DNA of 64,000 bases, taken from NCBI RefSeq assembly GCF_041886205.1, contig NZ_CP169029.1; one strand, given 5' to 3'. Numbering within the stretch: position 1 is the first letter of the stretch; every line of letters begins with the position of its first letter. Made by a program: the position numbers and the translations under genes. The notes beneath the pieces were generated by a model that searched no databases, was not told the origin of the DNA, and saw nothing but the letters and a program-made list of their open reading frames with translations. Source of the stretch: Escherichia coli. GTDB lineage: Bacteria > Pseudomonadota > Gammaproteobacteria > Enterobacterales > Enterobacteriaceae. Shown piece by piece: positions 39,345-39,687 of this stretch.

Positions 39345-39373
39345 TGACACATTCGGGCGGAATTCATATGATG
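39345..39373 (+). promoter_or_regulatory. Sigma-70 promoter for tRNA-Ala (TTGACA-N17-TATGAT) with GC-rich discriminator
   Basis: Consensus -35 and near-consensus -10 about 30 nt upstream of the tRNA. Confidence 0.6.
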
Positions 39374-39404
39374 CCGCCCGTCAACTCGACAAGCTTTACG
39401 TGAC

Positions 39405-39480
39405 GGGGCTATAGCTCAGCTGGGAGAGCGCTTGCATGGCATGCAAGAGGTCAGCGGTTCGATCCCGCTTAGCTCCACCA
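39405..39480 (+). tRNA. alaX: tRNA-Ala (anticodon GGC)
   Basis: 76-nt tRNA with G3:U70 alanine identity pair and GGC anticodon; single copy in this window. Confidence 0.93.
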
Positions 39481-39490
39481 AATTTCCAAC

Positions 39491-39518
39491 CCTCGCTGCA
39501 AAGCGGGGGTTTTTTGTC
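39491..39518 (+). terminator. Intrinsic terminator after tRNA-Ala
   Basis: Hairpin CCCTCGCT-GCAA-AGCGGGGG followed by T6. Confidence 0.65.
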
Positions 39519-39687
39519 TCTGCTTTTTGCCGCTTTTGTAATACAGTCTACGTCCGGGTTAGCGCCGCCTGGTGAAAGCATCATTGGATGAAAAATCGGC
39601 AACAGGCTGGCCCCTGTTTGCTTCGCGATGCGAATAAACTTATTATTTGTGTGCCTGAAAACCCCGATCAGTGAGAGTAGTGTACTC

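Follow-up and report, generated by a model that had tools for sequence, protein, structure and literature searches.

Recent loss of one 115-bp repeat unit very probably left a single tRNA-Ala(GGC) gene at the alaWX locus of an Escherichia coli strain

In Escherichia coli K-12 MG1655 (NC_000913.3), the interval between pdeA and yfeC is annotated with two tandem tRNA genes, alaX (b2396) and alaW (b2397). In the stretch of 64,000 nucleotides analysed here, hereafter termed the window, only one tRNA gene lies between the same neighbours, which raises the question of how this arrangement arose and what it means. The original prediction held that a single tRNA-Ala(GGC) gene is present where K-12 carries the alaX-alaW tandem. 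The MG1655 annotation shows the two copies, and the single gene of the window was recovered by ARAGORN, by the Rfam model RF00005 and by an exact-sequence search, none of which yielded a second tRNA-Ala between 39,185 and 39,690, where such a gene was to be sought. Within the 64-kb window ARAGORN identified five tRNAs, only one of them a tRNA-Ala, with the anticodon GGC at positions 34-36. The gene at 39405-39480 scored 63 bits with RF00005 (gathering score 29), and this model detected no second tRNA between 36706 and 41000. Correspondingly, the window contains the exact 76-nt sequence a single time, a search for a second or degenerate tRNA-Ala across its entire length found none, and no 14-mer of the alaW-alaX spacer is present anywhere in it. 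Further Rfam matches in the region, namely plasmodium_snoR31, Plastid-ycf2 (antisense to the tRNA-Lys gene) and tmRNA_permuted (over the tRNA 3′ end and the terminator), scored far under their gathering thresholds and were dismissed as chance. The features of the locus and its surroundings are listed below with the evidence for each.

36309 to 36706, minus strand: cluster of the valU-valX-valY-lysV type, four tRNAs (ARAGORN)
38825 to 39184, minus strand: yfeC, the upstream divergent neighbour (open reading frame list, annotation of the 6EVA counterpart)
39344 to 39349, plus strand: putative -35 hexamer TTGACA of the alaW(X) promoter (promoter scan, cross-genus conservation)
39367 to 39372, plus strand: putative -10 hexamer TATGAT, 17 nt after the -35 hexamer (promoter scan, cross-genus conservation)
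39373 to 39379, plus strand: GC-rich discriminator GCCGCCC (read from the sequence, invariant in the alignment)
39380 to 39404, plus strand: predicted 5′ leader of the precursor, about 25 nt (alignment)
39405 to 39480, plus strand: tRNA-Ala(GGC) gene, 76 nt, with encoded CCA and G3:U70 (ARAGORN, Rfam RF00005, MG1655 alignment, direct reading)
39405 to 39485, plus strand: remaining copy of an 81-bp direct repeat, tRNA plus AATTT (6EVA alignment)
39488 to 39515, plus strand: predicted intrinsic terminator, a 10-pair hairpin (39488-39511) and six T (39510-39515) (terminator scan, RNA fold)
39688 to 41877, plus strand: pdeA (yfeA), the downstream neighbour (open reading frame list, sequence; start set by homology to the 6EVA annotation)

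The tRNA encoded in the window is identical to both K-12 alaW and alaX at 76 of 76 positions. As read from the sequence, its acceptor stem and 3′ end (GGGGCTA...TAGCTCC-A-CCA) contain the pair G3:U70 and the base A73. Both are identity elements for alanyl-tRNA synthetase, and G3:U70 of the window tRNA is the predicted identity pair for this enzyme. The tRNA reads GCC and GCU codons. The exact 76-nt sequence is widespread in Proteobacteria, with at least 120 loci, and is found unchanged in Rhizobium, Bartonella, Cupriavidus, Idiomarina and Pseudomonas capsici, an unusually deep identity for a tRNA.

A promoter scan of the region 39100-39800 returned one site only, which matches the consensus at 11 of 12 positions. 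Since 0.9 consensus promoter sites are expected in shuffles of this region, the scan is weak evidence and by itself proves little; the assignment of the putative promoter is carried by cross-genus conservation. In an alignment of five E. coli sequences with Escherichia albertii and Citrobacter werkmanii, the -35 hexamer, the -10 hexamer and the discriminator are invariant in all three species, as are the block GGAATTCATATGAT around the -10 hexamer and GGAATTCA directly upstream of it, while the variable positions comprise bases between the two hexamers and bases further upstream. The near-consensus hexamers, the 17-nt spacer and the GC-rich discriminator are the features of a sigma-70 stable-RNA promoter, as which we interpret the site from its sequence. 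By general knowledge of such promoters, transcription is predicted to start at about 39379-39380, and the promoter may be subject to stringent and growth-rate control. In a network built from curated regulatory data, alaWX shares a module with fis and the other operons for tRNA and rRNA (PMC544888).

The leader of about 25 nt is the same in all five E. coli sequences and in C. werkmanii, and only its last base, 39404, differs in E. albertii, with T in place of C; as in established tRNA maturation, it would be removed by RNase P. Downstream of the tRNA, the hairpin and T run at 39488-39515 constitute a predicted intrinsic (Rho-independent) terminator. Six of the ten pairs of the hairpin are G-C, its folding energy is -17.2 kcal/mol (z = -3.5), the first two T of the six-T run form the last two pairs of its stem, and it is conserved in E. 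albertii and C. werkmanii. Thus, the scans together with the conservation agree with the original description of the unit as a TTGACA-N17-TATGAT promoter with a GC-rich discriminator and a terminator of its own; its start coordinate of 39345 was off by one, as the -35 hexamer begins at 39344, which is immaterial. Between the terminator and the start of pdeA, a weak hairpin of six pairs followed by GCCGATTTTT was also noted on the minus strand (39601-39618); 0.8 such sites are expected in the shuffled region, and it is probably due to chance.

Compared with alaWX of K-12 MG1655, the window shares the yfeC-pdeA locus as well as an identical tRNA, -35 and -10 hexamer, discriminator, leader and terminator. 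It differs by a base at 39331, 13 nt upstream of the -35 hexamer, and by the presence of one gene instead of two, the 39-bp spacer being absent. Hence, the tandem of two tRNA-Ala(GGC) genes sharing a promoter, by which the alaWX unit is defined, is not found in the window, and the locus is a one-gene derivative of the alaWX transcription unit. A few flanking SNPs and a 1-base indel relative to MG1655 place the window on a non-K-12 haplotype, and the flanking 601 bases show 99.4% identity to K-12-type records vs 100% to strains such as 14EC033.

The complete genomes closest to the window over 5 kb and 25 kb are those of strains 6EVA and wlxctx60, both of which harbor two tRNA-Ala copies. Over both lengths their identity to the window is given as '100.0%', and neither the 5-kb nor the 25-kb window query yielded an uninterrupted match at 100% in the complete RefSeq E. 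coli set (5,426 genomes). In an alignment of 376 columns, the window corresponds to 6EVA minus exactly 115 bp, and the remaining bases are identical. The missing 115 bp comprise one 76-bp tRNA gene and the 39-bp spacer. In 6EVA, AATTT follows each of the two tRNA copies, so that the deletion is bounded by perfect direct repeats of 81 bp, and its junction lies somewhere inside 39405-39485, with no finer placement possible. Apart from the deletion, the window and 6EVA differ over 49 kb by 20 SNPs and one 1-base indel (about 0.04% divergence), which indicates that the loss relative to this two-copy strain is recent on the scale of the clone.

Taken together, these results make it very probable that the alaWX operon of the window strain was reduced to one gene by the recent loss of one 115-bp repeat unit. 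We propose that, in a recent ancestor, unequal recombination or replication slippage between the identical 81-bp direct repeats would have removed one tRNA-Ala(GGC) gene with one spacer, and that the product would be an intact single-gene unit consisting of the sigma-70 promoter, the leader of about 25 nt, one CCA-encoding tRNA and the intrinsic terminator. Repeats of such length delete readily without RecA in E. coli; the product in the window would fit RecA-dependent exchange as well as slippage. The loss of exactly one period between identical repeats, the independent recurrence of the allele on unrelated backgrounds and the expanded arrays of three copies in the population, both described below, form the signature of unequal exchange or slippage, and three-copy arrays are likewise an expected outcome of unequal exchange. 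Recombination between tandem tRNA genes, as originally suggested for this locus, therefore fits the exact 115-bp deletion between 81-bp identical repeats.

The two-copy state of 6EVA and wlxctx60, at a divergence of only about 0.04%, would likewise be seen if the window strain carried two real copies and the 115-bp tandem repeat had been reduced to a single unit during assembly. Many de Bruijn k-mers exceed the 81-bp repeat in length, a possible cause of such a collapse, and no independent assembly of the source strain is present among the 5,426 genomes. However, an array of identical 76-bp tRNA-Val genes spaced at about 120 bp, at a distance of just 2.7 kb (36389-36706), was resolved into all three copies within the window, and the one-copy allele is repeated in three separate EDL933 assemblies and in ATCC 43894, an O157 laboratory stock, which shows that it is real elsewhere. 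We therefore consider an assembly artefact unlikely, albeit the most serious of the alternatives to the loss of a repeat unit.

The one-copy arrangement was found in 136 of the 5,426 complete RefSeq E. coli genomes (2.5%), three or more copies in about 51 (0.9%), and two copies in the remainder (about 96.5%). A genome was scored as one-copy when a 156-base leader-tRNA-trailer query was covered to at least 80% in one place, and as carrying three or more copies when a spacer-tRNA-spacer query was covered to at least 80%. A query of 601 bases is blind to the distinction between one and two copies, as both pieces are joined as one place, whereas short queries with flanks of 20-40 nt discriminate. 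The total of 10,783 matched places is close to the prediction from the copy-number counts. Laboratory strains among the genomes with at least three units or odd extra places include BL21(RP), in which one matched place lies under an annotated tRNA-Gly, Rosetta2-DE3, BL21-RIPL, one BL21(DE3) assembly and XL10-Gold; these may reflect true expansions, engineering or the assembly.

The one-copy genomes include the three EDL933 assemblies, ATCC 43894, Xuzhou21, KO11FL, several porcine ETEC strains and the K-12 derivatives MC1061 and OV2; for EDL933 and MC1061, the annotation likewise shows one tRNA-Ala at the same locus. Within O157:H7 alone, one (EDL933), two (SS TX 754-1) and three copies (Z1834) occur, with the 115-bp period throughout. 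The RefSeq one-copy alleles, among them those of EDL933, Xuzhou21, KO11FL, MC1061 and OV2, match a 116-base spanning query from the window at 100%, but they reside on other flanking haplotypes, and none is close to the window over 5-25 kb. These differing haplotypes indicate that the alleles represent independent events. As revealed by alignment, the flanking haplotype of the window is that of 6EVA, MC1061 carries the K-12 SNPs and EDL933 has a haplotype of its own, from which it follows that at least three independent deletions yielded the same allele.

Given that one-copy donors exist in many lineages, the allele might also have been imported into the window strain by homologous recombination, and a SNP at 39218, 187 bp upstream, where the window has A and 6EVA has G, could be taken as a trace of such an event. 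Yet A is the majority state at this position and the G looks private to 6EVA, and the diagnostic bases closest to the gene (C at both 39331 and 39563) are those of 6EVA rather than those of the one-copy haplotypes of K-12 or O157. Import thus appears very improbable, and a deletion in situ remains our preferred explanation.

As to the ancestral state, a tandem tRNA-Ala(GGC) pair is present in 17 of the 18 Enterobacterales loci (species) scanned. The survey comprised E. albertii, Citrobacter, Enterobacter, Klebsiella, Superficieibacter, Pseudescherichia and Pantoea as well as Mixta, Rosenbergiella, Dickeya, Acerihabitans, Photorhabdus and Xenorhabdus; the pair was missing only from a Plesiomonas metagenome bin, whose contig ends 138 bases from the gene, so that a second copy may have been cut off. 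This distribution argues that two copies are ancestral and one copy is derived. The converse scenario, in which one copy is ancestral and the pair of K-12 and most other strains stems from a later duplication, is a formal possibility only. Against it stand the pairs in E. albertii, Citrobacter, Enterobacter, Klebsiella, Pantoea, Mixta, Dickeya, Photorhabdus and Xenorhabdus, the pair in 96-97% of E. coli and the two copies in the closest relatives of the window. In light of the outgroup survey we rejected it as hardly conceivable.

The original prediction further described copy-number change by recombination between tandem tRNA genes as common and regarded the single copy as another marker of a strain other than MG1655. 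The first statement holds insofar as the change arose repeatedly, but the one-copy state was encountered in only 2.5% of the genomes. Regarding the second, the window is indeed not MG1655, as its flanking sequence shows that it is not K-12; the copy number of alaWX, however, is a weak 'not K-12' marker, because MC1061 and OV2 are single-copy as well and the copy of MC1061 resides on K-12 flanking SNPs. More generally, the copy number is homoplastic, with separate changes in laboratory derivatives of K-12, in O157:H7 and in the lineage of the window, and is therefore unfit as a lineage marker in typing.

In passages of the work by McDonald et al. (2015, PMC4539685), many tRNA genes are described as differing by one copy between E. 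coli strains, and tandem arrays of identical tRNAs such as glyVXY as comprising three to four copies. The passages retrieved from this paper by a term search do not mention alaWX, and the frequencies of 2.5% and 0.9% stem from the present analysis. With differences of one copy in tRNA gene number published (PMC4539685) and the exact allele annotated in many RefSeq genomes, the one-copy alaWX allele is an already known, ordinary and recurrent polymorphism, and the finding alone is of little weight. For annotation, the locus is to be treated as a single tRNA-Ala(GGC) gene of the alaW/alaX type and not as an error to flag.

In two-copy strains, the 39-bp spacer leaves no room for a second promoter, which argues that both genes are co-transcribed. 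The window strain would consequently obtain one tRNA instead of two per transcript, and the supply of tRNA-Ala(GGC) is predicted to be roughly halved, although feedback on the promoter could compensate. E. coli lacking the whole alaWX unit is viable but grows slowly, and 530 of its genes are differentially expressed in minimal medium (PMC11480407); Salmonella lacking it is slow-growing and temperature-sensitive (bioRxiv 10.1101/2024.04.04.588050). Both studies attribute the defect to poor reading of GCC by the tRNA-Ala(UGC) that remains, which is of the cmo5U type (PMC11480407; bioRxiv 10.1101/2024.04.04.588050). Deletions of alaW or alaX as single copies are not mentioned by Raval et al. (2023, PMC9981150).

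Since E. coli and Salmonella grow more slowly once both copies are deleted, a halved dosage may carry a small cost, and such a cost would explain the conservation of the pair across the order together with the rarity of one-copy variants. In line with this, 81-bp repeats with a 115-bp period lead one to expect frequent deletion, yet the pair is kept in 17 of 18 species and in about 96.5% of E. coli, which suggests selection on dosage. We tentatively put forward, as a conjecture about which we are rather doubtful, that the two-copy state is held by selection on tRNA-Ala(GGC) dosage and that one-copy strains are either short-lived, mildly deleterious variants or condition-dependent ones that gain an advantage in slow growth. 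If this were true, natural isolates with one, two and three copies would provide a ready series for determining how much one copy of a tRNA gene contributes to fitness.

Beyond the tRNA locus, the comparison with the nearest relatives revealed some minor differences. The sole indel relative to 6EVA other than the tRNA unit is an extra C at 53054 of the window, located inside a 6EVA gene at the position of fryA, which RefSeq annotates as a frameshifted 'ptsP' pseudogene; the copy in the window may be intact. Moreover, several strains that are otherwise near-identical to the window (wlxctx60, C21, 14EC001 and H2) carry insertion elements (IS421, IS1 or IS4321) in or near pdeA and gltX, and in EDL933 a gene of the InsQ/TnpB family adjoins yfeD. 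None of these elements of the relatives (IS421, IS1, IS4321 or the InsQ/TnpB-family gene) is present in the window.

The neighbouring cluster at 36309-36706 encodes three identical tRNA-Val(UAC) and one tRNA-Lys(UUU), as in K-12. In 11 of the 17 pair-bearing stretches fetched for the survey, tRNA-Val genes of such a valUXY-lysV-type cluster are likewise found near the tRNA-Ala pair. At the same cluster, the contig of the E. albertii type strain holds two tRNA-Val only, while Photorhabdus and Xenorhabdus show expanded runs of Lys and Val tRNAs, indicating that the valUXY-lysV-type array also varies in copy number between species.
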